64,000 nucleotides of DNA from a virus (Duplodnaviria; Heunggongvirae; Uroviricota; Caudoviricetes), in the IMG/VR virus record IMGVR_UViG_3300034082_003579; one strand, given 5' to 3'. The translations under genes and the position numbers were made by a program. Under the pieces are notes generated by a model, which was given only the letters and a program-made list of their open reading frames with translations, was not told the DNA's origin and did not search any database. Shown here in pieces: positions 4,110 through 22,307 of this stretch; the first letter of the stretch is position 1; each line of letters begins with the position of its first letter.

Positions 4110-4579
4110 TTTTTTAGATCTTTTTCAAGCTCGGCCTGCACTACACGTTTGCGAAGGCTACTGCTGCTGAATGAATGATCACGTTTGTTGAAGATCAATT
4201 CGATTCCGCGGGCGTAGCATTCGTGTGCACCTGTAAATTCTTTGTCGGCATATTCTACACCCAAGATTCTGACATCCACTGGCAAGATCAACAGCAAGTC
4301 TACCAAGTCCTGCTCGGTTTGGTATATCACTATTTCGTCTACAAATCTAGTGGCCGACAACTGTATCTGTCGTTCCACTATGCTCTGCACTGGAGGATTC
4401 TTTGTGTCAGGTCGATCAATTGTGGGATCAGTTTGCAAGCCAGCAATCAAGTAATCACAGTGATTTTTAGCTTCGGCCAACATAGCAATGTGTCCAGCAT
4501 GTAGCAAATCAAATGTACTGAAAGTGATACCGATCCTCAGTCCCTGCTGTTTTAGTTCTTTAATTTTGTTGAATATCAT
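4106..4579 (-). CDS. cytidylyltransferase (TagD-like, HIGH family)
   Basis: TFSTFDLLHAGH, GLQTDP, RDHSFSSSSLR. Confidence 0.85.
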   Translation of the reverse strand: MIFNKIKELKQQGLRIGITFSTFDLLHAGHIAMLAEAKNHCDYLIAGLQTDPTIDRPDTKNPPVQSIVERQIQLSATRFVDEIVIYQTEQDLVDLLLILPVDVRILGVEYADKEFTGAHECYARGIELIFNKRDHSFSSSSLRKRVVQAELEKDLKK

Positions 4580-4618
4580 TTTAGTTTTAGGGTTAGAAGT
4601 TTGAACTACAGTTTTTGA

Positions 4619-5029
4619 TCACGATACTTCCGTGCGTCCATTTCCAATGTCTCTGCTGCGTGTGAATCTAGTAGGGTTCATGGCCTGCTCTTGTTCCCAG
4701 GTTTCCATAACAACGTGACGACAAACGTTCTGGAACCATTGATCTACTACATCAGCATCGGTCTTCCCTACATATCCTGCACGGATCAAATTGGCCACAA
4801 ACTTTTCGTTCCAATCCAATTCAAAGGCACCTTGATGGATATTTTCAGGATCTACATCCATGCCGAGAATAGCAACGTAAGGTTCCCCACGTTCAGTAGC
4901 CAAGTCTTTTTCTGACTTTTGTGGCTCCACTTTTTTAGTGCGTTCTTTCTTAGCTGCCTTGACAGCTTCAGCCGGAATTGGCGTTAGTGGTTCCGGCGAT
5001 TTAAAAAAACTTTTTAATTTGTCAAACAT
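4619..5029 (-). CDS. hypothetical phage protein
   Basis: 136-aa ORF with AGGA SD. Confidence 0.75.
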   Translation of the reverse strand: MFDKLKSFFKSPEPLTPIPAEAVKAAKKERTKKVEPQKSEKDLATERGEPYVAILGMDVDPENIHQGAFELDWNEKFVANLIRAGYVGKTDADVVDQWFQNVCRHVVMETWEQEQAMNPTRFTRSRDIGNGRTEVS

Positions 5030-5030
5030 A

Positions 5031-5498
5031 TCATTTGTCCTTTACTTCTATCCATGTGTGGTCACCCAACCACTTGACTGCCACAATGTATTCATACCAT
5101 GCAGGTGGATCTGCCGACCAACCGTCAGGTCCCATGCCGCACAATATGATTTCATTTTGTCTATGATCCTGCACTAACCAATAGACCTGTCCGTGTGCAA
5201 TTTGAAAATCGTATCGGGCAGCATGCACCATGTCAGTCAGGTCAAGCCTGCGTTTGATTTCATCAGCTTGCTTTTGTAGTACTGATACCAACTCCATGAT
5301 GCGATTATATTCTTGCTCGGCATGCATGCGAGCAACATTCAGCATGATGTCTTTTTGTCTAGTAACAGGAACTAGATCAAATGCAGGTGCACCAGCTTCT
5401 GTAGGATAAGGAGTGACATTGCGGTTAAAAAAAGGCACAACTACATTACCAACATTGACATCGAAACTGTTGCGACCTTTTGCGCTGTTGTCACTCAC
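5031..5498 (-). CDS. hypothetical protein, DUF2452-like
   Basis: YPTEAGAPAF motif, coiled-coil middle, DHTW end; GTG start. Confidence 0.55.
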   Translation of the reverse strand: MSDNSAKGRNSFDVNVGNVVVPFFNRNVTPYPTEAGAPAFDLVPVTRQKDIMLNVARMHAEQEYNRIMELVSVLQKQADEIKRRLDLTDMVHAARYDFQIAHGQVYWLVQDHRQNEIILCGMGPDGWSADPPAWYEYIVAVKWLGDHTWIEVKDK

Positions 5499-5501
5499 TG
5501 A

Positions 5502-6386
5502 TCAAGTACCCCAAGCATTACGCCACAAGTCTACCTGCAATCTTGGGCTGTAACGATATCCTCGCTCCATGGACATGTTTGCTACCTGCTGTGTGTTGAC
5601 GTTGTAGACGTCAGCAACACCGCCAATGGGCATCAAGTACACAGGACCCGAGAATCCAGCCTCGCGATAAAGAGCCACTGCACGATCCACATCGTTGAGA
5701 TCTTCTCTAGTGGCAACCACAAACTTCAAGTAAGTCACTCCAATGTCTTGATAGCTTTTAACAATTGCAGGCTTGATGGCATCTGTCCATTTCTCACCGG
5801 AACTGGGCAGCTTGGCTGACACACTGAAAGTTAGATTGTCGCGGTCTCTGCCAAATCGTGTAAACTCTTGAAACAGATATTCGTGAACTTCGGGATACAA
5901 TTCTTGAGTACCGTTGGTTTCAATGGTGACATTGCGTAGCCCGTGGCCTCGACATTTTTCAATCATTTCTGGATACAGTTGTTGATAAGCCAACAAGGGT
6001 TCTCCGCCTGTTATGACCAGGTGTATGTCGTCACTGGTTCTACTCCATGCCCATTGATTGCCAGGAATCATTCCGTGCATCTCGTCAATGATTTCGTCTA
6101 CGTTTTTATGATTGCTGAATTTCTTGAATTCAGGATAGATCGAAGCATACGAATCGCATCCGGTTGATACCAATGGTAGATCCTTAAAGCTTTTGTATTG
6201 ACTGAGATTTTCTATAACCACTGCTACTTCTGGGTTGGCTCCTGCAATCTCTTCGTTGCGATCACGCCCAAACTTCTTGCAGCGAAAGTTACATCCGTAT
6301 GTTCTAAAGAACACGCTGGGCACTCCAGCCCAGCGTCCTTCGCCTTGTAAACTGTAAAAGATTTCTGTGTAGTGTATTTTTTCCAT
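5502..6386 (-). CDS. queE: 7-carboxy-7-deazaguanine synthase (radical SAM)
   Basis: EIFYSLQGEG, RTYGCNFRC...CDS split Cys triad, ITGGEPL, IETNGT, SPRLQVDLW. Confidence 0.9.
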   Translation of the reverse strand: MEKIHYTEIFYSLQGEGRWAGVPSVFFRTYGCNFRCKKFGRDRNEEIAGANPEVAVVIENLSQYKSFKDLPLVSTGCDSYASIYPEFKKFSNHKNVDEIIDEMHGMIPGNQWAWSRTSDDIHLVITGGEPLLAYQQLYPEMIEKCRGHGLRNVTIETNGTQELYPEVHEYLFQEFTRFGRDRDNLTFSVSAKLPSSGEKWTDAIKPAIVKSYQDIGVTYLKFVVATREDLNDVDRAVALYREAGFSGPVYLMPIGGVADVYNVNTQQVANMSMERGYRYSPRLQVDLWRNAWGT

Positions 6387-6422
6387 GGTATATCCGCTGA
6401 GTTATTGATTAATTGTACTGTT

Positions 6423-6429
6423 TATTTAG
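6423..6429 (-). promoter_or_regulatory. T4 late-type promoter for queE
   Basis: CTAAATA in the only intergenic gap upstream of queE. Confidence 0.55.
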
Positions 6430-6436
6430 GTCAGTG

Positions 6437-6970
6437 TCAACCTGCGTGGTGACTTCCATCAGAATTCCGGTGCCACCACCATTCTTCCCAAGGGAAAACA
6501 ATCCATTGCGGATCATCTAGTTTGTTGATGGTTTCAGCAGCGTAAGACGGAACCAATTGGCTTTGACTTGCTTGATTGTCGTATAGAGTGGCTACACGAG
6601 TACTCTTACCCCAAACAAAGTCCCATTGTTCGTCATGTTCAAAGCAGTTGCCTTCCCAATCTCGTTTGATCCAGTTTAATGTGGTTCCCGAATCATTGAT
6701 ATCATCTACAATCAAAATGTTTTTGCCGTTGAACGCATCTTCGGCCATCCAAAAGTTGCTTTCGCATTCGTCGGCAGCACCGTCACGTAGTCTGACTTTC
6801 AGTGTTTCCATAGGACAATCAAGGTACTGACTGATCAAGTTGGCCGGTGTTAAGCCACCTCGTGTGATACCCACTACATAGTCTGGTGTCCATTTGTCCA
6901 AACACATTTGTCGAATTAGTTCCTGCACCTGTTGCTGTACATCGTGCCAGCTTACATATACTTTTTTCAT
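6437..6970 (-). CDS. type I phosphoribosyltransferase (Gpt-like)
   Basis: VVGITRGG, ILIVDDINDSGTT PRPP motif, WIVFPWE. Confidence 0.88.
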   Translation of the reverse strand: MKKVYVSWHDVQQQVQELIRQMCLDKWTPDYVVGITRGGLTPANLISQYLDCPMETLKVRLRDGAADECESNFWMAEDAFNGKNILIVDDINDSGTTLNWIKRDWEGNCFEHDEQWDFVWGKSTRVATLYDNQASQSQLVPSYAAETINKLDDPQWIVFPWEEWWWHRNSDGSHHAG

Positions 6971-7692
6971 TTAGTTGCCTCTCTAATTTCTTTCATAAGA
7001 TTTAATTTAATAGCACTGTTTCTGCTGCCGTGGACGTGAACAATATGCGCTTGGGACATAGCAATTCCATTCCATTCGTCTTGAGCCTGTTGAGATATAA
7101 AAGGCAGTCTTGGAGCCTGGTATGCAATTTCAGGATGTAGGACCTGTTCTAATGTAACCTTTTGTCGCCATAGCATGGCATTTAAAATAAGCTGTTCCGT
7201 ATCATAAGTTGAATGATCCCACTTTGTAGCCAAGGTATTACCCAGCCCCCATAATTTTCGATCCATTACGGCTGGAAAATATCTCACGCCAGCGTTGAAA
7301 AAATTTTCAAAATAACAACCATATGGATTGGGTTGATCGAATGTCCTAGGTTCAGTATAATTGAACATCATGAATTTGTCAAACTTATTGAATATATCTG
7401 TTGGTTTTTGACACACTGTGTCAGGATCGGTGTACAGTATGTTGCAATTTCCTTGATGCCAATATTTAGAAATCATCCAATGGGTATATTCGAATGCCTG
7501 ATTGATATTCTCAAATTCACCTGTGATAAATTTCAATTCCCAGTCGCCTTGCAAATACTGATCAAAACTGGCACAACTGATGTCGTGCATTTGTAGATAG
7601 TTTTCATGCAGATCAACTTCGTAACTACGATCCAGCACTTGCCAGTTTTTGTTTTTTATATGATAAAGACTTTTGATTAGATAATTTTTCAT
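6967..7692 (-). CDS. GT-A fold glycosyltransferase-like protein
   Basis: ILYTDPD DxD, FFNAGV, EQLILN, IVHVHG resemble GT8-like enzymes. Confidence 0.55.
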   Translation of the reverse strand: MKNYLIKSLYHIKNKNWQVLDRSYEVDLHENYLQMHDISCASFDQYLQGDWELKFITGEFENINQAFEYTHWMISKYWHQGNCNILYTDPDTVCQKPTDIFNKFDKFMMFNYTEPRTFDQPNPYGCYFENFFNAGVRYFPAVMDRKLWGLGNTLATKWDHSTYDTEQLILNAMLWRQKVTLEQVLHPEIAYQAPRLPFISQQAQDEWNGIAMSQAHIVHVHGSRNSAIKLNLMKEIREATK

Positions 7693-8405
7693 TGTTTATA
7701 TACAGCTATAGCAGTGTCATTATGATGCTGAACTTGATAGCCAAGTTCAACAAGCCAATCTTGCAACAGTTTGGCTTCGTTGTTCCACCAAGTATTATAA
7801 CTCCATCGTTCATAGATGATGGGAGGAAAATCATGCACACGCAAGGTTTCAACAGCCCCTTTTAAAACCGACAACTCGTACCCTTCTACATCCAATTTGA
7901 TACAACAGATGGGATCATAAAATATCATAGAATCCAATGGTTTTATTTCTATCGTGATTTCTTTACCGTGCCCTACACTAATATCACTGTTTCCCCACAC
8001 AGCAGGATTGAGACTGAAAGCACCAATGTTTGCAGCTTGGTCGTACAGCGGTTCCTGTATTTGCATAACTCCGTACGAATCGCCCAGTGCATGGTTGTAT
8101 GTTTGAATATTAGTAATGTTATTCAGTTGAATATTTTGCAACAATATTTCTTGCATAGCCGGCAGCGGCTCAAATGCTGCAACCGTGTAGTTGGGTAATT
8201 GCTGTGCAACTGGCAAACACACTGTACCCATGTTGGATCCTATATCTAAAATTACGCCAGGTCCTCGTAGTCGTGCCTGTTCGACCACTAGATCAACTAC
8301 GTACCATTCATACTCGCCTTTTGATAACAGGGCTTGACTGATAAAATCTTGTGGATAACGAATAGCCATTTTGCCATGACGAGTTTGAATTATATGCACG
8401 ATCAT
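7689..8405 (-). CDS. FkbM-family methyltransferase
   Basis: ILDIGSNMG, AFEP, IKLDVEGYE. Confidence 0.88.
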   Translation of the reverse strand: MIVHIIQTRHGKMAIRYPQDFISQALLSKGEYEWYVVDLVVEQARLRGPGVILDIGSNMGTVCLPVAQQLPNYTVAAFEPLPAMQEILLQNIQLNNITNIQTYNHALGDSYGVMQIQEPLYDQAANIGAFSLNPAVWGNSDISVGHGKEITIEIKPLDSMIFYDPICCIKLDVEGYELSVLKGAVETLRVHDFPPIIYERWSYNTWWNNEAKLLQDWLVELGYQVQHHNDTAIAVYKQ

Positions 8406-9217
8406 GTTTGGTACTGCTTCAAGTGGCCATTAACATCGGCTGCCATCATTTTATCCCATGGTCCATTGGTTTTATTCTGTATACCTTGCCAGTGTGTTAA
8501 CTCATATCCCTGTTGCTTGAGATATTCTGCCAGTTTAACGGTTTCTTCAACACGAGCCCGACGATGCGTAATGTAATTGAAATCTCTTGGATCATCTGGG
8601 TTGCCTTCGAAAATTTGCCTACGTTTAAATGTGTTGTCGTTGTTTTTTCCACTTAGATCAAAACGTTCGTGTTCAACATTGACATCGATTTTGACCACAA
8701 TGTCTAGTAGCCAGGCAATCTGACTTAGCCAAGCATCAGTCAACTGGTGCTGACTCAAGTGACCAATTATCTCAAACCAGGTTCTTGGTACTATGGGAAA
8801 AATACTGTAAGGATGAAAATTATGCGTATTAAAGGCCTGCAAACAAAATCGTCCGTTGTGGCTGTTGATCACCGTGTCCCAGCCTGCAGTATTCATCACA
8901 GCATCATCGTTCCAAAATACAAACCAACTACCTGTGGCTTTTTTGGCCAATGCATTGATATAGAAATGTAAGTTTTCGTATCCCACTGGTTCAAATTGCA
9001 AACAGGTATACAGTGCATCAGAGGATTTTATTTTAGGTAACACATGTTTGGCAAACCAGGTATAGCTGTCGGCATCGTCGCTGTCGAATGCAAACAACCA
9101 TTCAAGTGCTGCAGGATCATCGGCCGAATCAATTAGACTAGAAACGCTGCGATCTAATTGTTCAGTGCGGCCTCGAGTAGGCAACAGTATACTAATCTTC
9201 GAGATATTGTTGGACAT
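8402..9217 (-). CDS. GT2-like glycosyltransferase
   Basis: ISILLPTRGR N-terminus, FWNDD motif. Confidence 0.65.
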   Translation of the reverse strand: MSNNISKISILLPTRGRTEQLDRSVSSLIDSADDPAALEWLFAFDSDDADSYTWFAKHVLPKIKSSDALYTCLQFEPVGYENLHFYINALAKKATGSWFVFWNDDAVMNTAGWDTVINSHNGRFCLQAFNTHNFHPYSIFPIVPRTWFEIIGHLSQHQLTDAWLSQIAWLLDIVVKIDVNVEHERFDLSGKNNDNTFKRRQIFEGNPDDPRDFNYITHRRARVEETVKLAEYLKQQGYELTHWQGIQNKTNGPWDKMMAADVNGHLKQYQT

Positions 9218-10028
9218 TTTGATGTAAAAAATTTAGCTGTGTTATCAAGCGTTCTAGGTCCGGTAGCGGCACCATGTTGGGACCATCGCTGGGTGCTGAA
9301 TCGGGATCTTCATGTGTTTCGATAAACACTGCCGCTACTGATCCGGTTGCTATTGCCGCCCGGGCCAATGGGGCGGCCATCCGTCGATCGCCGCCTGAGC
9401 TTGAGCCAAATGCTCCAGGCTGTTGGACACTATGTGTAGCGTCATAAACCACGGGATACCCAGTATCAGCCATAATGGGTAAGCTACGCATATCCACAAC
9501 CAAATTATTATATCCATGAGTATATCCTCTTTCACATAACATAATTCTTTCATTACCAGTAGAAGCAATTTTTTCAGCAACATTTTTCATGTCATGCGGT
9601 GCTAAAAATTGTCCTTTCTTTACATTGATCACACACCCAGTCCGACCGGCTGCTATCAACAGATCAGTCTGACGACAAAGAAATGCTGGAATTTGCAACA
9701 CATCGACGCCAGCATCGGCGCACACTTGAGCTTGATAGCTTTCGTGAATGTCGGTCAATACTGGAATACCGTAACGATGCTTGATACCGTTGAGAATTTT
9801 CAAACCCTCATCTATACCGACACCACGGGGTGTGACAGCACTACTTCTATTGGCCTTGTCAAAGCTACTTTTGTAAATAAGAGGAATACCTAATTTGCGA
9901 GTGATATCAAGAATTGATCCTGCCATGTGTTGAGCATGTGTTTCGCTTTCGATTTGGCACGGACCAGCAATGAGAACCAGGGGGCTGTCGCCGCCAATGG
10001 TCATGCGATTGATCTGGATCGTTTTCAT
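9192..10028 (-). CDS. kdsA: KDO 8-phosphate synthase
   Basis: IAGPCQIES, KSSFDKANRSS, LQIPAFLCRQTDL, NVKKGQF, CERG, DATHSVQQPG, ETHEDPDSAPSDG. Confidence 0.95.
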   Translation of the reverse strand: MKTIQINRMTIGGDSPLVLIAGPCQIESETHAQHMAGSILDITRKLGIPLIYKSSFDKANRSSAVTPRGVGIDEGLKILNGIKHRYGIPVLTDIHESYQAQVCADAGVDVLQIPAFLCRQTDLLIAAGRTGCVINVKKGQFLAPHDMKNVAEKIASTGNERIMLCERGYTHGYNNLVVDMRSLPIMADTGYPVVYDATHSVQQPGAFGSSSGGDRRMAAPLARAAIATGSVAAVFIETHEDPDSAPSDGPNMVPLPDLERLITQLNFLHQNVQQYLED

Positions 10029-10031
10029 TGA

Positions 10032-10517
10032 TTAATCCGCAAACTCGTTGTCTTCCCTATGTCCTGACCGTCCAGCCATATTGCTGTCAGTTTCTCGAAC
10101 TTCTACTCGGCAGCACCAAACTCGTTTGGCTTCTTCTGCACCGCAATTGGGCAAATAAATGGTATTGATATATTCATACAAGAAATCTGCTAGTCCTTCG
10201 CATCCAGTACGTTCAACTTCGGTAATCTTGGCCAAGCCCAGCTTTCCTAGGTTCAGCAAGTGTTCACGTTGTGGATCATCCTGTGCCACTAGCAAAGTAT
10301 GGTCAAACCATTCTTCTAGTTTGTCTTTTAGTTCTCTTAATCCACCAAAGTCAGTCACCCAGTTACGAGCATCTAGTGTGTCGGCTTCGAACTCAAAGTG
10401 AAAGCTCATGGCATATCCGTGAATTAAGTTGCAATGACTGTCAGCACGCCATTGACGATAAGCGACAGGACCAATTTGTCTGTAAGTTTTTGTTGAAAAG
10501 AATTTTTTATTTGACAT
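10032..10517 (-). CDS. queD: 6-carboxy-tetrahydropterin synthase
   Basis: HCNLIHGY, DFGGL, FDHTLL, EGLA, VRET; start set at ATG 10517. Confidence 0.9.
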   Translation of the reverse strand: MSNKKFFSTKTYRQIGPVAYRQWRADSHCNLIHGYAMSFHFEFEADTLDARNWVTDFGGLRELKDKLEEWFDHTLLVAQDDPQREHLLNLGKLGLAKITEVERTGCEGLADFLYEYINTIYLPNCGAEEAKRVWCCRVEVRETDSNMAGRSGHREDNEFAD

Positions 10518-10519
10518 GA

Positions 10520-10861
10520 TTAATGATTCCTTGATCCGTCGAATACACAATTGAATACGAGATCGATCTCGTGGGTGTTGATGACACGATGAAACGCACC
10601 GTCAGGAATGATTACTACGTCCCCGGTAGTGACTGCAAATGCATCGGAATCTTCGTCGCCTACAATCATCTGTCCTGTGCCAGCAATGAAGAAATATATT
10701 TCTTCTTGCCCAGCATGTCTATGCCCACGAGTCTGCCGATGAGCATGCAATCGTGTTTGACTCAAGGTCAAGTTTTTTAACTGTTGATTGTCGATGATCT
10801 GATAGGTTTCGTCATCTTTGACAATGTCTCCACCTATGTTGTAGTTTGTCAGATTTGCCAT
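10520..10861 (-). CDS. cupin domain protein
   Basis: HRHAGQEEIYFF...IPDGAFHRVIN metal-binding cupin motifs. Confidence 0.82.
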   Translation of the reverse strand: MANLTNYNIGGDIVKDDETYQIIDNQQLKNLTLSQTRLHAHRQTRGHRHAGQEEIYFFIAGTGQMIVGDEDSDAFAVTTGDVVIIPDGAFHRVINTHEIDLVFNCVFDGSRNH

Positions 10862-10867
10862 TATTGA

Positions 10868-10910
10868 TCTCCTATGATATATTATAGCATAGGCTTGCAG
10901 AATTTGTAAA
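10868..10910 (-). promoter_or_regulatory. sigma70 promoter with -10 inside an SD-overlapping hairpin
   Basis: TTTACA-18-(TGc)TATAAT; CCTATG/CATAGG arms flank the -10, 3' arm overlaps AGGAG. Confidence 0.6.
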
Positions 10911-10954
10911 GCGGGATGAATGCCAGAAAAAGGCCGCTACAGTGCTTTTTAAAA

Positions 10955-12034
10955 TTAAACATTTAACTTTATGAGGTGTTTGCTTAAGAATTCTTTTAAT
11001 CTTTCTAATCGATACTTATGGTCGCAGACATGTTGGTGATTATAATCCAACACAGTTTGTGCTGTTTTGTAAACGTCTACATGATTAGATTTAGATAATT
11101 TTATCACTTGATCAAATGCCATAGACCACCGGGCATTGTGATCGGGTTCTTGGTCATAACTTTCATCAATAATTCCATGAAAGGTTTGATAGCCCATACT
11201 TTGTAAGTGTGCCAGTGATCCTTGTGGACCAAACATTACAAATATTTTTTTTTCAAACAACGGTTTGGCTGTTTTTTCTGAGAGAAAATTTGAAAACCAT
11301 GGATTGGTTTCGGCCACTATAGAATACCAACTGTTTTGATAAATTTTAAAAGGAATACTGTGGCTTACCCCAATGCCGTTGGCCAACCCAGGAAGTCCCC
11401 GCATGCTGTTTTTGCGGGCATCCTCAGTGATTATTGGATCATCATATTCAATTAGATCTGGACTGGTGTAGTTTACACTGCCATGTATGTTGAGAAAAGT
11501 TTGATTCAATAGATCCGCTTCGATTAATTTTTCATATACAAGTATTCTGTGCTCTTTTGCAATTCCCAGCAAAGCGTCAAATATTTTGGGTTTGCTTGTG
11601 GTCTGATCCCAAGACTGATATTTACATACATCAACTATTTTTGAAAAAAAATGTCCCAGATGATCAAACACCAAATCATCTGGGTAATGATCCATTACAA
11701 ATCTCCCGTTGGCAACACAAATCAAATTTTTATTATTAAAGTGCTCAGAAGTCATGTCATAATACGATTCCCATGGACCGATGATCAATTCGCTGGTGTA
11801 GCAAATAAGCAAATTGGCCCAACTGAGATCCTGCGGAGGCTGGTTTCCTCCGCCCCATGACCACCAATCCCTAACAACAACTTTTTTTCTATGGTCATTT
11901 TTAATTTGCTGGGGGTCAATATCGCTTACAATCTCTGCATTACCAAACAGTTCAATACCTAATCGATTAGCAAGATTCAATTCATACGTGTGATCTGGAT
12001 CCCAAATCAAAACATTTTTTAAATCAATAGTCAT
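10955..12034 (-). CDS. hypothetical protein, possibly GT-B/exostosin-like
   Basis: 359 aa; YSIVAET...FLSEKTAKP resembles the ENS...TEK segment of the GT10-like gene at 60.7 kb. Confidence 0.45.
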   Translation of the reverse strand: MTIDLKNVLIWDPDHTYELNLANRLGIELFGNAEIVSDIDPQQIKNDHRKKVVVRDWWSWGGGNQPPQDLSWANLLICYTSELIIGPWESYYDMTSEHFNNKNLICVANGRFVMDHYPDDLVFDHLGHFFSKIVDVCKYQSWDQTTSKPKIFDALLGIAKEHRILVYEKLIEADLLNQTFLNIHGSVNYTSPDLIEYDDPIITEDARKNSMRGLPGLANGIGVSHSIPFKIYQNSWYSIVAETNPWFSNFLSEKTAKPLFEKKIFVMFGPQGSLAHLQSMGYQTFHGIIDESYDQEPDHNARWSMAFDQVIKLSKSNHVDVYKTAQTVLDYNHQHVCDHKYRLERLKEFLSKHLIKLNV

Positions 12035-12051
12035 TATTTTTTGTAGTTATC

Positions 12052-12843
12052 TTAACGTGGAGCAAACTCTTGTTGTAGTTTGATATTGTCAAAAAACTCT
12101 TTCTTGGTGCCAGGATCGGACAAGAATGCCCCGCGAAGCACTGTGGTCTGTGTCAAACTTGAGTGTGCCATAATACCGCGATTCTCACAGCAGCCGTGTG
12201 TGGCTTGAATATACACACCCACATTCTCACTGTCTGTAGCCCGCATTATTTCTCTTGCAATGTCGTTGCAAAGTTCTTCCTGCAAAGTACCACGGCGGCT
12301 GCACCACTGAGCAATCCTAGTATACTTAGATAGCCCGATAAGTTTATTTGCGGCAATGATTCCAATGTAGGCAACACCGCTAACAGGCTGATGATGGTGA
12401 CTGCACATACTGCGCAACTCACTGCGCACAACCAACATACCTTCATATCTATCCTTTGAATCATTCGGAAACGCTGTTGCGTCTGGTGCCGGTTCATATC
12501 GCCCAGACATAATTTCGTACACATACATCTTGGCCAATCTGCGTGCTGTACCGCGACTGTTAGGATCTGTGACTGTGTCAATTACCAAACTTTGTAACAC
12601 GTCTTCAAATTTGACTGTGAGTTCGTCTACTAGTTGAGTTTTTTCCTCTTCTGTGATGTGTGCTGAAATGTTGTCACCGGCCCAATATCTGACCTTGCCT
12701 GCTTCTAAACGTTGCCGAATTACTTGTGATAAATGTTTTTCTTTATAGTTTTTATCGTCGTCACCTTGTTGTTGTGCGCCTGCAAGTGAGTTTCTTATTT
12801 CTTGGTCTCTTTTTAAGAGTTCTGGTGGTGTTGGATTGCCCAT
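12052..12843 (-). CDS. folE: GTP cyclohydrolase I
   Basis: TARRLAKMY, SMCSHHHQP, GLSKYTR, LQEEL, HGCCENRG. Confidence 0.95.
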   Translation of the reverse strand: MGNPTPPELLKRDQEIRNSLAGAQQQGDDDKNYKEKHLSQVIRQRLEAGKVRYWAGDNISAHITEEEKTQLVDELTVKFEDVLQSLVIDTVTDPNSRGTARRLAKMYVYEIMSGRYEPAPDATAFPNDSKDRYEGMLVVRSELRSMCSHHHQPVSGVAYIGIIAANKLIGLSKYTRIAQWCSRRGTLQEELCNDIAREIMRATDSENVGVYIQATHGCCENRGIMAHSSLTQTTVLRGAFLSDPGTKKEFFDNIKLQQEFAPR

Positions 12844-16320: not shown

Positions 16321-17268
16321 TCATCGATTATACCAAGTCCAGGCATGCTGAACTATATCTTGTAATGCAAAAGCAGGTTGCCAACCGGTGGCATTTGACC
16401 ATCTAGCAGGTGATGCTGTCAACTGTGCTGGATCACCTGTACGTCGAGGACCTGTGCTGACAGCAACCTTGCGACCGATAACAGACCTGGCCATGTCAAT
16501 AATTTCCATGTTGCTGTGTCCTTGATCTGTTCCTAGATTAAAGATACCTGTTACATCTTGCTGTACTGCTAGAACATGTGCTTGGGCCAAATCTTCTACG
16601 TGAACATAATCACGTATGCAAGTGCCGTCGGCAGTGTCGAAGTCAGTTCCATTCAGTACAAACTCTTGATTGTCTCTCGCACTTTCTAGTACTCTGGCAA
16701 TGATGTGTGTGGCTCCAGGTGCTTGTCCGTGTCGAGCCTGGGGGTCAGCTCCACAGGCATTGAAATATCTAAATGCAGTGTACTTGAGATTGTAAGCACG
16801 GTGATAGGCCTGTAGCATAAATTCCACCATCAGCTTGCTTTCGCCGTAGGGACTGATGGGCATGGGAGGATCTTCTTCACTGCATGGTAACATGATAGGT
16901 TCACCATAGACCGCAGCACTGCTACTGAATATCAATTTGATATCGGTTAACTTGTTAGCTACTAGATAATCCAGCATGCATTTGGTTTTGACAAAATTAT
17001 TTTCATAATATGTGCTGGGATCCAATATGCTGGGACCAACTAAACTGGTCCCAGCACAATGAACAATAGCAACAGGTTGCGCACGAGCTATCAAGTGCAA
17101 ACAATTGGTTTCAGAAAAGTCCGAAACTAAAAAATCATCCACTACCGATTGAATAGCAGTGCCGGGCGTGTGTTGATCCACACCAATGACCTGATATCCA
17201 GCCGCTGACAATGCCAGCACAGTTTGTCCGCCGATATAGCCGGCTGCTCCAGTTACAATTACATTCAT
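16321..17268 (-). CDS. galE: UDP-glucose 4-epimerase
   Basis: TGAAGYIG, SSSAAVYG, YGESK, RYFNACGA, RDYVHVEDLA. Confidence 0.93.
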   Translation of the reverse strand: MNVIVTGAAGYIGGQTVLALSAAGYQVIGVDQHTPGTAIQSVVDDFLVSDFSETNCLHLIARAQPVAIVHCAGTSLVGPSILDPSTYYENNFVKTKCMLDYLVANKLTDIKLIFSSSAAVYGEPIMLPCSEEDPPMPISPYGESKLMVEFMLQAYHRAYNLKYTAFRYFNACGADPQARHGQAPGATHIIARVLESARDNQEFVLNGTDFDTADGTCIRDYVHVEDLAQAHVLAVQQDVTGIFNLGTDQGHSNMEIIDMARSVIGRKVAVSTGPRRTGDPAQLTASPARWSNATGWQPAFALQDIVQHAWTWYNR

Positions 17269-18470
17269 TCTTCTATCTTCCGTACATGATATTTAGGTTG
17301 ACTCACATGATCTCTGTAGCGATTTCCAGCACGATTCCATTGCTCACCGTTGCCTTCCAATATGTCCACAATGCGATCAACAGTGCTGTTGGTCCAATCA
17401 CTGATGAGACCCATGTTGTGATGTGGTTCACGCAAGAGATTCTGCATCTTGTGATAAGCATCGTCAATAGACCAAGGTACGTACAATCGGTTGGGATCAT
17501 CGGCAAAGGTTTCAGGGAAACTGCGATAAGCAGGATACAACACATTGCAACCCACTGTGTCTGCTTCACTCACTGTGTTGCTAACCCAGTCTTGCAAGGC
17601 ACAGTTAAACAACACACGAGTATCGTTGAGCAAGGCATAGTAATCATTCTTGCTTAGATTTTCATAAATTGCAAGACGTCCTTGTTGTTGCATTTGTCTT
17701 GCACGAGCAACATATTCCGGATTGTTACTACGCAACGGACCTCCAGACATGATAGCAAACTCGCATGGTTCAGTGGTTAACTGAGCATACATGTCAATGA
17801 GATCCATGAAGAATCCCGGCTGTTTCTCCTGATCAAATCTGGCAGCAAATGCCACACGTCTGGGTCTTTCTGCAAAAGGTTTGACGTTTGCCAAACCACC
17901 GATGCGTTCTAACACTTCGTCTTTGCCGAATGCTAGTCCTGAGATGTTGTAGATAGGAGCTGTCCACCCAGCAATACGCATGTGAGCAACCATTTCTTCA
18001 TTGGTGGCCAATACGTGAACATTGGGAACCTGATTTACCATGCGTTCATAAGTTGACATCCAGCCGGCCATGCCCCAGACATGCACAAAGTCGTCGGGAT
18101 CAATTGCCTGTGCCAAACAACGAACATAGATTTGTGGTTGAAGATTCGTTGGAACCTGATCCATGATATAGGGCAAGCTCTCAATACCAGGCGAAAACAT
18201 GTCCTCAAAATACACAACGTCATCGCTAGTAACTTCGCCATTTCGCATCATCTTGACAAGATTCATCATCTGACTCATGGCAAAGTAACTGCGTCCGTGT
18301 GCGTCTAACACTTGTCCTACTGAGATGGCACCTGAATTGTCAAGTGTTTCACCAGGAACATACACTACATCAAGTCCTCGACGTTCAAACACACGCCGAT
18401 TCCATTCAGTCAGTTGCAGAGTGTATCTTGATTCGTACGACTCTAGTGCCATGTAAAATAATTTACGCAT
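17265..18470 (-). CDS. GT-B fold glycosyltransferase
   Basis: AARFDQEKQP, QDWVSNTVSEA acceptor/donor motifs; start set at ATG 18470 (MRKLFYM). Confidence 0.7.
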   Translation of the reverse strand: MRKLFYMALESYESRYTLQLTEWNRRVFERRGLDVVYVPGETLDNSGAISVGQVLDAHGRSYFAMSQMMNLVKMMRNGEVTSDDVVYFEDMFSPGIESLPYIMDQVPTNLQPQIYVRCLAQAIDPDDFVHVWGMAGWMSTYERMVNQVPNVHVLATNEEMVAHMRIAGWTAPIYNISGLAFGKDEVLERIGGLANVKPFAERPRRVAFAARFDQEKQPGFFMDLIDMYAQLTTEPCEFAIMSGGPLRSNNPEYVARARQMQQQGRLAIYENLSKNDYYALLNDTRVLFNCALQDWVSNTVSEADTVGCNVLYPAYRSFPETFADDPNRLYVPWSIDDAYHKMQNLLREPHHNMGLISDWTNSTVDRIVDILEGNGEQWNRAGNRYRDHVSQPKYHVRKIEE

Positions 18471-18472
18471 GA

Positions 18473-18685
18473 TTAACGCACCCGTGGTGCATCTTGCATC
18501 CACATGTCTTTGACATGCTTGCCCTGCACACGTTTGTTGAATTGTTGGTAAGCATAGCTTTTCCAATTGTATAGATCTGCTTCGTTAAATTTATATCCAT
18601 AGTCGCGACAAAATTCAAGAAACTGTTCGAGGTCGTCGAAAATTTGTGTTACTTTAGGATTAGATTTGATTGATGGCTTGGCCAT
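18473..18685 (-). CDS. small hypothetical protein
   Basis: 70 aa, AAGGA SD. Confidence 0.75.
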   Translation of the reverse strand: MAKPSIKSNPKVTQIFDDLEQFLEFCRDYGYKFNEADLYNWKSYAYQQFNKRVQGKHVKDMWMQDAPRVR

Positions 18686-18694
18686 TGTGTTTCC

Positions 18695-19159
18695 TTAGAT
18701 TACTATGTGTTGATAAGGGCGGTGAGTGTTATATTTAATCAAGCAGCCGTTCTCACCATCTTCGGCTACTTCTATCCAGACACTACGTCCAGGATATCTT
18801 GCGGCAATCTGTACGTACAGATCGTCGGCAATCATTTCGCATGATTTATAATCTAAACTTAAAACGGTATTCGTATTATGGTTATTGGGGGAACGGTAAA
18901 GGTTTTCCAACCAGCGTTTGAATTGGATAAACTCAATGTCCCGATCGTTGTGCCAGACGTCAATCCACACCCTGAAGTGAAAGATGTGACGATGAGGATA
19001 GCCAAGAAACGATACATCATATTCATCTCCAGTGGCCAATGCAGGATCTGTCAAGGCCGCAGGATATTTATGGATACCTTCTTTTTGGAAGGTTACCCAT
19101 ATTTGTCTCTGTGCTGCTTCTTTAATGCGTTCTATTTGTTCGCGTTCTGCTTGAATCAT
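18695..19159 (-). CDS. dpdL: QueD-like T-fold protein, DpdL (CDG decarboxylase) candidate
   Basis: LGYPHRHIF fits LxxxHRHxF; DRDIEFI, SCEMIA and VAEDGENG follow the T-fold layout. Confidence 0.7.
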   Translation of the reverse strand: MIQAEREQIERIKEAAQRQIWVTFQKEGIHKYPAALTDPALATGDEYDVSFLGYPHRHIFHFRVWIDVWHNDRDIEFIQFKRWLENLYRSPNNHNTNTVLSLDYKSCEMIADDLYVQIAARYPGRSVWIEVAEDGENGCLIKYNTHRPYQHIVI

Positions 19160-19163
19160 TTTT

Positions 19164-19730
19164 TTACTCGAAAAATTTGTTATAGGTCGATTTTGAAGTA
19201 TTTTCTAATTTTTTCATGGCATTGTTGCTGATTCTAAATTCATATGACCTTGATCCTTTTACTGTTTGTTCCAGATAACCCCATGCAGTCCCGTATATAT
19301 AGGGATCATCATTGCCGTTTATTAATTTTTTTCTTGCAGCTTCGTATGCTTCTTCAATTAAATCTTGAATATACTTAGGTGAAAAATCATATACTTCTCC
19401 TGATATAATCAGTTGATCTTTTGTTTTAACTCGATACTGTTGTTGCATTTTTTCAAACACAATAGATTGGCAATAAGGAGTAACCTTGATATACTCCGGC
19501 GACATTTTACACACACCCTGTGCTGAAGTTGCGTCGACATCACGTGATTTCACTTCTAACGGATTATATCCAGGATGTTTAATATCAGCCCCGGCTGCAG
19601 TAGAATCGATAGGTATACCTTGGTCTATCAGTATTTGTTCTATAGCTCTTCCTGCATGCCCAAATTCTTTGTTGGGTACCGACATACCGACTATATTTAC
19701 ATTTAGTCCGGTTATTTTTATCTGTGACAT
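19164..19730 (-). CDS. PD-(D/E)xK endonuclease, MutH/Sau3AI-like
   Basis: GHAGRAIE...ADIKHPGYNPLEVKS catalytic pattern; start set at ATG 19730 (TAATG coupling); AT-richer than flanks. Confidence 0.6.
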   Translation of the reverse strand: MSQIKITGLNVNIVGMSVPNKEFGHAGRAIEQILIDQGIPIDSTAAGADIKHPGYNPLEVKSRDVDATSAQGVCKMSPEYIKVTPYCQSIVFEKMQQQYRVKTKDQLIISGEVYDFSPKYIQDLIEEAYEAARKKLINGNDDPYIYGTAWGYLEQTVKGSRSYEFRISNNAMKKLENTSKSTYNKFFE

Positions 19731-20095
19731 TAGCTGGGTCTCCGTAAAAATTCCCAAGACACAATTCGAGCAATAGCAGCAGCTTTGTCATCAGTTTCGT
19801 CAGGAATGATATGATGTTTGGTGATGCTGCGATCGTTTTTACTATCGTATGTTTGTACTTCTACAATCATACCACCTTCGGCTGCTGCCACTTTGAAACG
19901 GATAGGACGCTCTAAGTCAATGCTGTCGCTGGTGCTGCAAATAACAGAGTCTCTTTCCATTGGTGGTTCAATGTAGTTATTTTTGATCTTCTTGTCCAAG
20001 TAATCCTGTTCGGCTTTGAGTTCAGGGTATACAACACCTGCACGATGCCAGCACCAACGTGCTTTACGATAAAACCATCGATCAAAAAATTTCAT
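19730..20095 (-). CDS. hypothetical protein
   Basis: Start ATG 20095 by ATGA coupling (MKFFDRWFYRK). Confidence 0.7.
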   Translation of the reverse strand: MKFFDRWFYRKARWCWHRAGVVYPELKAEQDYLDKKIKNNYIEPPMERDSVICSTSDSIDLERPIRFKVAAAEGGMIVEVQTYDSKNDRSITKHHIIPDETDDKAAAIARIVSWEFLRRPS

Positions 20096-20613
20096 TTGAT
20101 TACTTTGTCCTTTGTGTATTGAGACCACGGTGTGAACACCGCACGATTTTGTAATGCATGTAAGCTGTGACACCACACTCCGGGATTGGTTGCTGCAAAG
20201 TCTCGATCATCCAGTTTGATAGTGGCGCTGTATCCCAACTGACTCATGTAAGGTAACTTGACACTTATCATGGGAATAAAGTTATGATATTCTGTTAGCC
20301 CCGATTCGCACAGCCCTTCAACACTGGTGCTGTCGATATCAAGTGTACACAGTAAACCAGTTTTCAACAATGGTTTAATCATGTCTTCCCATAATGTCCA
20401 AGTATGGAAATCATTTACAGGAGGATTAGGAAAACTCATGTTGGCACCAAAGTAGATGTGATTGGTTTCGTAAGTTGAACATGCCAGCGCATGTTTGATG
20501 TCTTCTACTGATTGCACACCTACTACAAACAGAGTATCCATATCATACGCCGGAGTGTGTTCAACTTCCTTGCCAAAGAAAAATCTTACGTTGTCGTGCC
20601 CTTCTCGTTTCAT
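20092..20613 (-). CDS. hypothetical protein coupled to dpdA
   Basis: 173 aa, ATGA overlap with the TGT-like gene. Confidence 0.8.
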   Translation of the reverse strand: MKREGHDNVRFFFGKEVEHTPAYDMDTLFVVGVQSVEDIKHALACSTYETNHIYFGANMSFPNPPVNDFHTWTLWEDMIKPLLKTGLLCTLDIDSTSVEGLCESGLTEYHNFIPMISVKLPYMSQLGYSATIKLDDRDFAATNPGVWCHSLHALQNRAVFTPWSQYTKDKVIK

Positions 20614-22307
20614 ATGCTTTGTTCCAGTTTGTCTAGTTTGCCAATGTCAAGGTCATCAACTGCGATATCCTCTTCTCTGGTATCATATAGTGTTTTGTAT
20701 TGACTTTGTGCGTTGACTGCACGTTTTCCGGTGGCACCGCGTGTTCCTACAACCCGTTCCCATACTTTAGCATGATCTACAATAATTTGCAAGCTCTTTT
20801 GGCGGTCGCGGGCAGAGAAAATACGATCAATGACCTTGTCTATGTCATAGTCAGGGTTATACGGATGTACCATCATGTCTGGGCATACACCCGAATCAAA
20901 CATACGATTGGCACGCTGTACAGCTTCGATGTGTGTCCAGACATTATGACTCATAAGCAAGGCATAGCTGAAACTATCCCACGACGTTTTACCTTCCTTG
21001 CCAATCTTATTCAAGTCGCCTGGCTTGTAATAACACACATCCGAAATCTTCATACGGCTCGTAATAGGTGAATCTTCAAAATTAGGATGTATTGCTTCGT
21101 CATCCTTGGGATTTCTTTTATCTTGCCTGACAGCATCACCAAATGATCTTGAGTCTACAGCATACTTCTTATCGTCCACCGTAGGACTCATGTTATAACT
21201 CCACTTCTTGCGATTTTCAGTAGTGATGTTGTGATACAGTTGTCCATTAGCAGTTGCCAGGAATGGACTAGCACAATCAAAGCTGATAGTAAAGGTTGGA
21301 TTATGATACTTCCTCACACTACGCTGAATGGCAGTGAGCAGCACTGCCCATTCCAGTTTTGATGTACCCAAGAAGTGCATCCAGTCGTGTATGCCGGATT
21401 CCAGCAACCCGTCATGTATTAAATGTACCAGTCGTTTGAGAACCAGTTGTACATCACACATGTTCTGCCCTCCCATGCCCCATCCGTTAAAGTGGCGCCC
21501 AGGATACTTAACTGGATCACAGTAGTCTTTCATGTCATTGTACCAATCGTCGGCTTCGTCGTGGGTGCCTCCTTGCAAGACATTTAGAATCTTAGTGTCA
21601 CCGTAGCGATTGTTAATCCAGTACTCGTTGTTATACTTGGTTGCATTTACAGCATCAATGTAGCTGGCAATACCAGATGCAGCAGATGCTTTGGGATCGC
21701 GAAACGTCCAAGTTGGAATATCCAATGTCATGCCGTACGTGGCAATACCCATTTGCCATTTAAGTACAACTTCACGCATTTTTTGTGCAGCATTCAATTT
21801 ATTTTGATACTCTTTAATAAGATCAACTTTTATAGTCTTAGGGTTACCATGTTTGTCTAATTTAGGTTTGCCTGCCTTATCAAGTACCGGTCGGATTTCA
21901 GTTTTACGAGTAATGCAATCTGTCATCTTAGCAGATACTTCTGCACTAGTAGGGTCGCGCCACTCGCCTTCCCACACACCCTTGGCAATCTGGAACCCAC
22001 CTGAGTCAGCCAACATGATAGTGTCGGCTTCTCTGTTGCGAACCATATCCTCTTTGGCCACAAACTTGGACAAGTCCAAGTCGGCATGACCTGCTGAATA
22101 CAAACTGTACTTGTAAGGAAACAGACCTTTTTGCGAATTTAACCAGTTGAGTTGTTCCATGTCAGGAATACCTGCTGGCATACGTGCGGCGTCGATGTAA
22201 TTTTCAGTACGTTGACGACCCACATAGTTGGCATAGAAACTGCTGATGGCTGGAAGAAATACAGCGTAGTCATTCTGATTTGCTGTAAAATTGTGTTGTT
22301 CGATCAT
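20610..22307 (-). CDS. dpdA: TGT-fold guanine transglycosylase (DpdA-like, DNA modification)
   Basis: LADSGGFQ, TLDIP, NVLQGG, GWGMGG, HFLG, SFDCASP and MSHN map onto the TGT catalytic motifs; lies with folE/queD/queE. Confidence 0.8.
   Translation of the reverse strand: MIEQHNFTANQNDYAVFLPAISSFYANYVGRQRTENYIDAARMPAGIPDMEQLNWLNSQKGLFPYKYSLYSAGHADLDLSKFVAKEDMVRNREADTIMLADSGGFQIAKGVWEGEWRDPTSAEVSAKMTDCITRKTEIRPVLDKAGKPKLDKHGNPKTIKVDLIKEYQNKLNAAQKMREVVLKWQMGIATYGMTLDIPTWTFRDPKASAASGIASYIDAVNATKYNNEYWINNRYGDTKILNVLQGGTHDEADDWYNDMKDYCDPVKYPGRHFNGWGMGGQNMCDVQLVLKRLVHLIHDGLLESGIHDWMHFLGTSKLEWAVLLTAIQRSVRKYHNPTFTISFDCASPFLATANGQLYHNITTENRKKWSYNMSPTVDDKKYAVDSRSFGDAVRQDKRNPKDDEAIHPNFEDSPITSRMKISDVCYYKPGDLNKIGKEGKTSWDSFSYALLMSHNVWTHIEAVQRANRMFDSGVCPDMMVHPYNPDYDIDKVIDRIFSARDRQKSLQIIVDHAKVWERVVGTRGATGKRAVNAQSQYKTLYDTREEDIAVDDLDIGKLDKLEQSI

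Follow-up and report, generated by a model that had tools for sequence, protein, structure and literature searches.

A predicted MutH/Sau3AI-fold nuclease gene carried as an optional cassette in the 7-deazaguanine operon of a giant lake-water phage

The stretch of DNA analyzed here (the window) comprises 64,000 nucleotides of IMG/VR virus record IMGVR_UViG_3300034082_003579, and its source is a giant phage of lake water. At 19164..19730, on the minus strand, it carries a gene for a 188-residue protein, P0001, which structure modeling identifies as a MutH/Sau3AI-fold PD-(D/E)xK endonuclease with the predicted catalytic residues E31, D49, E59, K61, and K94. The gene lies between a dpdA-like gene (20610..22307) and dpdL (18695..19159), both also on the minus strand and both part of a putative pathway for placing 7-deazaguanine in DNA. 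Two further minus-strand open reading frames (ORFs) precede it. The first, w173 (20092..20613, 173 residues), is a core gene of the cluster that follows dpdA-like in nearly all relatives. The second, w124 (19730..20095, 121 residues), is an optional gene whose stop overlaps the nuclease start codon. We tentatively read P0001 as a nuclease that would act on ordinary guanine-containing DNA while sparing the modified genome of the phage that encodes it.

Both gene junctions could be read directly. Upstream, the w124 stop and the nuclease ATG share a TAATG overlap (19728..19732, minus strand), which bears out the translational coupling inside the dpdA-to-dpdL run claimed by an earlier sequence-only reading of this DNA. 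Downstream, the nuclease stop, four A residues, and the dpdL start follow one another as TAA-AAAA-ATG (19157..19166, minus strand). An upstream TTG at 19757 was ruled out as the start, as all 28 aligned homologues begin at the Met of the ATG at 19730. The sequence-only reading had also described the gene as AT-richer than its flanks, with no cognate DNA methyltransferase adjacent, and both points held. GC content is 35.6% in the nuclease gene, against 42–44% in the five flanking genes and 42.3% in the window, and the DNA methyltransferase models of Pfam and NCBIfam matched none of the nine ORFs around it.

Sequence searches with P0001 returned nothing in Pfam, PHROGs, or NCBIfam, and tblastn found nothing in 50,697 phage records. 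None of 29 members of its family matched the Pfam MutH model (PF02976), even at E ≤ 5, and the family profile retrieved no MutH or Sau3AI chain from PDB sequences at E ≤ 10. A pattern scan of 185,579 prokaryote species genomes (one per species) found no relative, a scan that reaches close relatives only and is not proof of absence from cells. P0001 was therefore named by fold comparison alone. An AlphaFold2 model built on the family alignment (pLDDT 91.5, pTM 0.86) superposed on MutH (2aoq) with a VIA-align Z of 14.6 over 170 of the 188 residues (root-mean-square deviation 3.0). The Sau3AI catalytic domain (4pxg, Z 11.2), the Sau3AI effector (C) domain (7xm0, Z 9.5), BcnI (2odh, Z 7.6), and then other type II enzymes followed, and Foldseek gave E 2e-4 against MutH. 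The nearest entries in the ESM Atlas were three phage-only clusters labeled “hypothetical protein” (TM 0.80–0.85). Next came bacterial PF02976 clusters annotated as MutH/Sau3AI or MvaI/BcnI (TM 0.70–0.73), one of which is a fusion to a C5-methyltransferase.

The two motifs picked out in the sequence-only reading are both present: GHAGRAIE at residues 24–31 and the D-x9-E-V-K-S pattern at residues 49–62 (D49-x9-E59-V-K61-S). Among the 29 homologues, D49, E59, K61, and K94 are invariant and E31 is kept in at least 90%. Alignment with E. coli MutH by hhalign pairs E31/D49/E59/K61/K94 with E56/D70/E77/K79/K116, at a low probability of 4.6%, so the residue mapping rests on the fold match and the motif register. 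In MutH activated by MutL, the lysine K116 holds the attacking water in position (bioRxiv 10.64898/2026.04.21.719898). MutH His112 is not kept, I90 standing at that place in the hhalign mapping. From the fold match and the catalytic residues in MutH register, the modeled P0001 is a complete member of the MutH/Sau3AI structural superfamily with a sequence family of its own, and it is probably active as a nuclease, much as the sequence-only reading had proposed. It forms one compact domain without an added DNA-binding module, and a single domain of 188 residues, as modeled, would fit a short recognition site.

The nuclease family comprises 44 clusters at 90% identity and 214 clusters at 50% identity (E ≤ 1e-3). 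Nearly all members are 180–200 residues long, and in the data examined here they were seen in phages only. A full-text literature search turned up no paper that connects MutH-type nucleases to phage deazaguanine systems, and no such nuclease is mentioned by Cui et al. (PMC10516641). While the fold and its chemistry are known, the sequence family, its phage-only range as seen here, and its niche in a 7-deazaguanine operon appear to be undescribed. As a side observation, two BFVD entries share the fold (TM 0.61–0.62 for the two jointly): A0A7D5JWA5, an uncharacterized 196-residue protein of the T4-like cyanophage Synechococcus phage S-CAM7, and A0A8F8X6W8, a viral protein of 503 residues. Judging from these matches between models, MutH-like nucleases may be more widespread in aquatic myoviruses.

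The position of the gene is conserved across viral loci. Scanning IMG/VR gave 64 loci with a nuclease homologue, 63 of them informative, and in 55 of the 63 the gene lies between dpdA-like and dpdL, down to 34% identity. This is the synteny with dpdA and dpdL that the sequence-only reading had singled out for checking. Loci L065–L069 keep the same slot at 34–36% nuclease identity, while their PolB is 63–78% identical. The very next gene is dpdL in 45 loci, and in L154 the nuclease abuts dpdL though no DpdA-like gene lies within 6 kb. The junctions are of four types. Most loci have w173|dpdL or, less often, one of the others: the window has w124|dpdL, L001, L035, and L052 have w173|w124 (with w124 downstream of the nuclease), and L068/69 have dpdA|w173. 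Of the four, w173|dpdL is the most common. In most nuclease-carrying loci, w124 is absent.

The labels dpdA and dpdL given in the sequence-only reading also stood, the first with a caveat. The 565-residue DpdA-like protein is predicted to have the tRNA-guanine transglycosylase (TGT) fold. Its model drew 171 Foldseek matches at E ≤ 1e-3, the 50 best of which are all tRNA-guanine transglycosylases, and its DSGGFQ motif is part of a stretch, LADSGGFQ, that is invariant in the DpdA-like family. This stretch and the likewise invariant LNVLQGG and HFLGTS align with TGT-like proteins of phages ACP17 (gp123) and phiST (DpdA3), a weak, motif-level match by hhalign. The closest named relative is EST35_0316 of Pseudomonas phage PA5oct (34% identity). 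The caveat is that the protein has no sequence match in Pfam (including the TGT model PF01702), NCBIfam, or PDB, and no convincing kinship with phiST DpdA3 (hhalign probability 1%). It is soundly described as DpdA-like, in no described subfamily that could be verified. The protein also carries a Lys/Pro-rich insert of ~55 residues (residues ~118–175; window ~21780–21960, minus strand), which the 505–510-residue forms of many relatives appear to lack.

DpdL (154 residues) is a QueD paralogue in which LGYPHRHIF supplies the LxxxHRHxF signature in place of CxxxHGH. That signature defines DpdL, which has been proposed to be the 7-carboxy-7-deazaguanine decarboxylase (PMC10516641). Its homologues include phiST CGPG_00067 (E 1e-15) and ACP17 gp125 (E 3e-44). 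Farther along the minus strand are FolE (GTP cyclohydrolase I, 12052..12843), the first step of the deazaguanine pathway, and a QueD/PTPS gene (10032..10550). By gene content, then, the window encodes a predicted DpdL-type pathway made up of DpdA-like, DpdL, FolE, and QueD. In phiST, this pathway replaces all dG with 7-deazaguanine (dDG), and the resulting DNA resists restriction enzymes with G in their site (PMC10516641).

Two other neighbors recur with these genes. A homologue of w173, ACP17 gp122 (33% identity), lies just upstream of the TGT-like gene in that phage, and w173 is an unannotated core component of the deazaguanine cluster; an ESM Atlas feature search for it found nothing. A glycosyltransferase-like gene follows dpdL in the window (17265..18470, minus strand). 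In PA5oct and Acidovorax phage ACP17, its homologue sits between the DpdA-like and DpdL genes, and the gene is also present at L004 10617–11678 and L006 5996–7024. After it in the window come epimerase, aminotransferase, KdsA-like, and FkbM-methyltransferase genes. Deazaguanine that carries a sugar is conceivable.

Viral nucleases that spare their own modified DNA have precedents in T4 denA/denB and in chlorovirus restriction-modification (R-M) systems. The reading we favor, which we would put at a little under an even chance, is that P0001 is a short-site nuclease or nickase acting on G-containing DNA, with 7-deazaguanine phage DNA immune. It would be a catalytically active DNA endonuclease of the MutH/Sau3AI/BcnI type, dependent on Mg2+, made of a single domain, and encoded by an optional cassette in the dpdA-like to dpdL operon. 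Because this fold class reads short (4–5 bp) sites in the major groove, P0001 would most likely nick or cut DNA with ordinary G, whether from the host or from co-infecting phages. A short recognition site would in turn make self-protection a requirement. In the phage's own genome, where the DpdA-like enzyme would exchange G for 7-deazaguanine, the DNA would probably not be a substrate; such self-immunity is plausible by analogy, since the dDG DNA of phiST resists cutting at G-containing sites (PMC10516641). With the gene placed downstream of dpdA-like in one translationally coupled unit, no nuclease would be made without the protective enzyme.

A tie to modification genes is seen in the dpd synteny, in the TAATG coupling, and in a second modification context. 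In L060, a jumbo-phage fragment, five tandem Eco57I/N6_Mtase paralogues are directly followed by a nuclease homologue and then by a DUF7487/Vsr/REase-like protein (4275–12556), which makes this stretch an island densely packed with DNA-modification and nuclease genes. The analysis establishes the fold and catalytic residues, where the gene sits in the operon, its synteny, and the purifying selection and insertion boundaries described below. Beyond these, we infer enzyme activity, a short site, 7-deazaguanine in the phage DNA, and a modification that blocks cutting.

Several observations weigh against this reading. DpdA-type modification is post-replicative (PMC10516641), so newly made phage DNA would for a while carry the modification on one strand or on neither, and exactly such DNA is what a MutH-type enzyme would be expected to nick. 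The nuclease must therefore tolerate hemi-modified or transiently unmodified phage DNA. Eight IMG/VR loci and the more distant L155/L156 have a homologue with no dpd genes nearby, and searches for TGT and FolE in the records of the non-dpd homologues were negative, the IMG/VR records being 5–27% complete. The gene is also rare among relatives with the modification genes. Sampling IMG/VR by DpdA-like similarity gave at least 578 loci, and among the 59 newly fetched dpd loci that cover the slot (from the best 80) only two carry the nuclease. On a DpdA tree of 131 loci, nuclease presence needs 16 changes, at least 13 of them gains or losses forced by well-supported branches. Several supported nodes of the nuclease tree disagree with the DpdA tree (L027; L025/26; L093 with L035; L052 with L041; L068/69), while large clades agree; both trees come from quick methods. 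A distribution so patchy, insertion-like, and partly incongruent fits a selfish element as well.

The sequence-only reading had gone further and cast dpdA as the M and the nuclease as the R of a dedicated R-M-like pair. The operon linkage supports a connection between the two genes. A dedicated pair is overstated, because the dpd genes are core in hundreds of relatives without the nuclease. That reading had also held that a sporadic distribution unlinked to dpd genes would favor a selfish element. The distribution is indeed sporadic, yet it is not unlinked, given the 55 loci in the dpd slot.

The insertion itself is precise. The nearest relatives of the window, L071–L073, lack the nuclease although their DpdA is 75–81% and their DpdL 83–95% identical to those of the window. 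In a MAFFT alignment, the difference is an exact, AT-rich block of 571 bp (19166..19736, minus strand). In these relatives, the upstream ORF is joined to dpdL at the same point by a TAATG or GTG junction. L072 makes the join by CAGCTAATG, the same junction that starts the nuclease gene in the window. On the DpdA tree, the window and L001 are nested among the nuclease-less L071–L074. Both states also occur together in nature. The lake run X1 contains an exact contig over 19132–19884, crossing both nuclease gene junctions, and, at higher depth, a relative with dpdL joined to w173 (joint 19108->20092). Carrier and non-carrier variants of one phage lineage are thus present in one lake-water metagenome (window 18600–20700). 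At least 21 lake-water runs, dated 2020 and 2024, contain the window stretch. Metatranscriptome contigs X22–X24 cover the w124/w173 part only (90–99% likeness) and not the nuclease gene, which says nothing on expression.

Such a pattern keeps alive the selfish-nuclease alternative raised in the sequence-only reading, because the insertion is precise and AT-rich and the nuclease and DpdA trees are partly at odds. Under this alternative, the main rival of the favored reading and possible though rather doubtful, P0001 is a free-standing homing or marker-exclusion endonuclease. It would cut a site in or next to the dpdA-dpdL interval of nuclease-less relatives, and repair during co-infection would copy the cassette into the same slot, so that the position in the deazaguanine operon would mark the target location and have no tie to modification. 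The patchiness among close relatives, the exact ORF-sized insertion of lower GC, the co-occurrence of both variants in X1, and the four different junctions in one slot all speak for homing. So do other homing endonucleases nearby in these phages (NUMOD3 and HNH_3 in L001, and a Hef-like one splitting the PA5oct polymerase) and the second, non-dpd phage group, in which the immediate neighbors of the nuclease differ between related genomes.

By contrast, the build of the protein speaks against homing: it is a compact single domain of 188 residues, and its nearest structural relatives read sites of 4–5 bp, although oligomeric recognition is conceivable. To our knowledge, the nuclease belongs to none of the usual phage homing-endonuclease families, which also counts against homing. 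The gene shows no sign of decay. All 66 full-length copies are open, and pairwise ratios of non-synonymous to synonymous substitution rates (dN/dS) are 0.06–0.23, matching the range of dpdL and w173 across those genome pairs. The nuclease gene is under purifying selection, as low in dN/dS as core genes, which is again unlike what homing would suggest. The first 180 nt of dpdL, beside the insertion, showed no diverged “immunity” patch, being 88–98% identical to those of nuclease-less relatives, and this too speaks against homing.

The slot itself offers another account of the patchiness. Between dpdA and dpdL, it is hypervariable (~500–3,500 bp), and the dozens of unrelated optional genes found in it are not mainly nucleases. 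This cargo includes radical SAM/SPASM proteins (11 loci), a tryptophan-halogenase-like flavoenzyme, GFO/ADH oxidoreductases, Bax1-I, PsiE, redoxin, and EndoIII-like HhH-GPD glycosylases (cargo loci L010, L047, L065, L093, L096, L098, and L121). Because sporadic non-nuclease genes occupy the same slot, patchiness would be a property of the slot, which tells against homing. The same variability is what an accessory role would draw on. P0001 could be a nuclease that processes DNA whatever its modification status, for instance by nicking it for recombination-dependent replication or by giving DpdA access to it, and the position of the gene would then reflect the dpdA-dpdL interval as a tolerated insertion hotspot. 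The unrelated contexts of the wider nuclease family are consistent with this. Still, all 55 of the dpd-clade loci use this one slot in genomes of ~350 kb, which must have many other permissive sites, and dpdL stays the neighbor even in the rearranged L154. We therefore consider an accessory role unlikely.

Short-site statistics did not point to a recognition sequence. The window contains 384 GATC sites, with an observed/expected ratio (O/E) of 1.14, and no palindromic 4-mer is strongly avoided, which would fit the favored reading of an enzyme kept harmless to its carrier by the deazaguanine substitution. GATC O/E is 1.15 in both 35 carrier and 58 non-carrier loci, and a k-mer comparison between these two sets revealed no carrier-only depleted motif that could be the recognition site. 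Differences between carriers and non-carriers at CGCG, GGCC, and GTGCAC are probably lineage or host effects. Separately, the ApaLI-type site GTGCAC is strongly under-represented, with O/E of 0.10 in carriers and 0.39 in non-carriers. Either the presumed G modification may leave the phage DNA open to some host enzymes, or the avoidance may be older than the modification.

The closeness to MutH raises one more explanation, in which P0001 is a nickase for strand discrimination and repair. With deazaguanine in the template and G in the daughter strand, it would cut the unmodified daughter strand to direct mismatch repair or other excision repair, as MutH does at hemi-methylated GATC. Put in terms of the mark, the enzyme would read 7-deazaguanine status as MutH reads adenine methylation, nicking the G strand of deazaG/G duplexes and sparing fully modified DNA. 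We see little chance of this, whether as a repair function or as a mark-reading mechanism, although MutH is the best structural match (including the water-positioning lysine, K94 for K116) and post-replicative modification would supply the hemi-modified substrate. In L093, moreover, the EndoIII-like HhH-GPD glycosylase gene directly follows the nuclease gene. On the other side, no MutS-family gene (MutS_V) was found in five nuclease-carrying phage records that are 44–67% complete, one of which has a Dam-type methylase. MutH is latent without MutL (bioRxiv 10.64898/2026.04.21.719898), MutH His112 is not conserved in P0001, and there is no sequence-level membership in Pfam MutH. Further, the gene is absent from more than 90% of the relatives with the same modification system. 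Should the explanation prove true, it would describe a Dam-independent, base-exchange-keyed system of strand discrimination or self/non-self recognition, and P0001 would be the first known nuclease whose mark is a base installed by a transglycosylase.

Phage 7-deazaguanine systems have so far been understood only as passive shields against host restriction. If the modification-keyed reading that we favor is true, a conserved nuclease built into the dpdA-dpdL operon would give them an offensive or competitive function, with base substitution as the self-mark. This reading is directly testable because PCR products with 7-deaza-dGTP are easy to make. If homing is the right reading, P0001 would be a homing endonuclease of MutH type that has to work in genomes whose guanines are replaced. 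On any reading, a sizeable unannotated MutH-fold family, phage-only as seen here, gains a fold, predicted catalytic residues, and a genomic niche, and its site specificity could be useful as a modification-sensitive reagent.

Among known enzymes, MutH of E. coli and Haemophilus (2aoq, 2azo) has its fold, catalytic residues, and small single-domain build in common with P0001. However, P0001 is ~14% identical to MutH, is forty residues shorter, and differs in the lack of a PF02976 match and of His112. It is also encoded by a phage, inside a base-modification operon, with no MutS in the five carrier records. Sau3AI (4pxg, 7xm0) and the monomeric BcnI/MvaI share the fold and are short-site restriction enzymes that base modification stops from cutting. 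P0001 lacks the second, MutH-like effector domain of Sau3AI. These enzymes stand beside cognate methyltransferases in bacteria, whereas P0001 stands beside a guanine transglycosylase module in a phage. Among cultured phages, the DpdL-type system of Cellulophaga phage phiST matches the DpdL, FolE, QueD, and TGT-fold enzyme of the window, and PA5oct and ACP17 share the DpdA-like, glycosyltransferase-like, and DpdL genes with it. None of these three phages has the MutH-like gene.

The logic of the favored reading resembles that of T4 EndoII/EndoIV (denA, denB) and chlorovirus R.CviAI/M.CviAI, in which nucleases dispensable to the virus break down host DNA that is unmodified, and the modified viral DNA is immune. 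These systems differ from P0001 in fold (T4) or in using a methylation mark (chlorovirus). In addition, T4 modifies before replication and DpdA after it. For the homing alternative, the comparison is with the T-even homing endonucleases Seg and Mob, which are GIY-YIG or HNH enzymes with extended DNA-binding tails and long targets. The likeness lies in ORF-sized insertions between conserved genes that are patchy, lie in the same orientation as their flanks, and spread by co-infection; the difference lies in the compact PD-(D/E)xK domain of P0001. In the bacterial Dpd system, the restriction part consists of large helicase/nuclease proteins rather than a MutH-like enzyme. Its arrangement also differs from that of the phage clade, where the modification genes are core and the nuclease is optional. 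Still, bacterial Dpd (dpdA–K) uses 7-deazaguanine as an R-M self-mark, and the two share a deazaguanine-inserting TGT homologue linked to a DNA-degrading function (PMC10516641).

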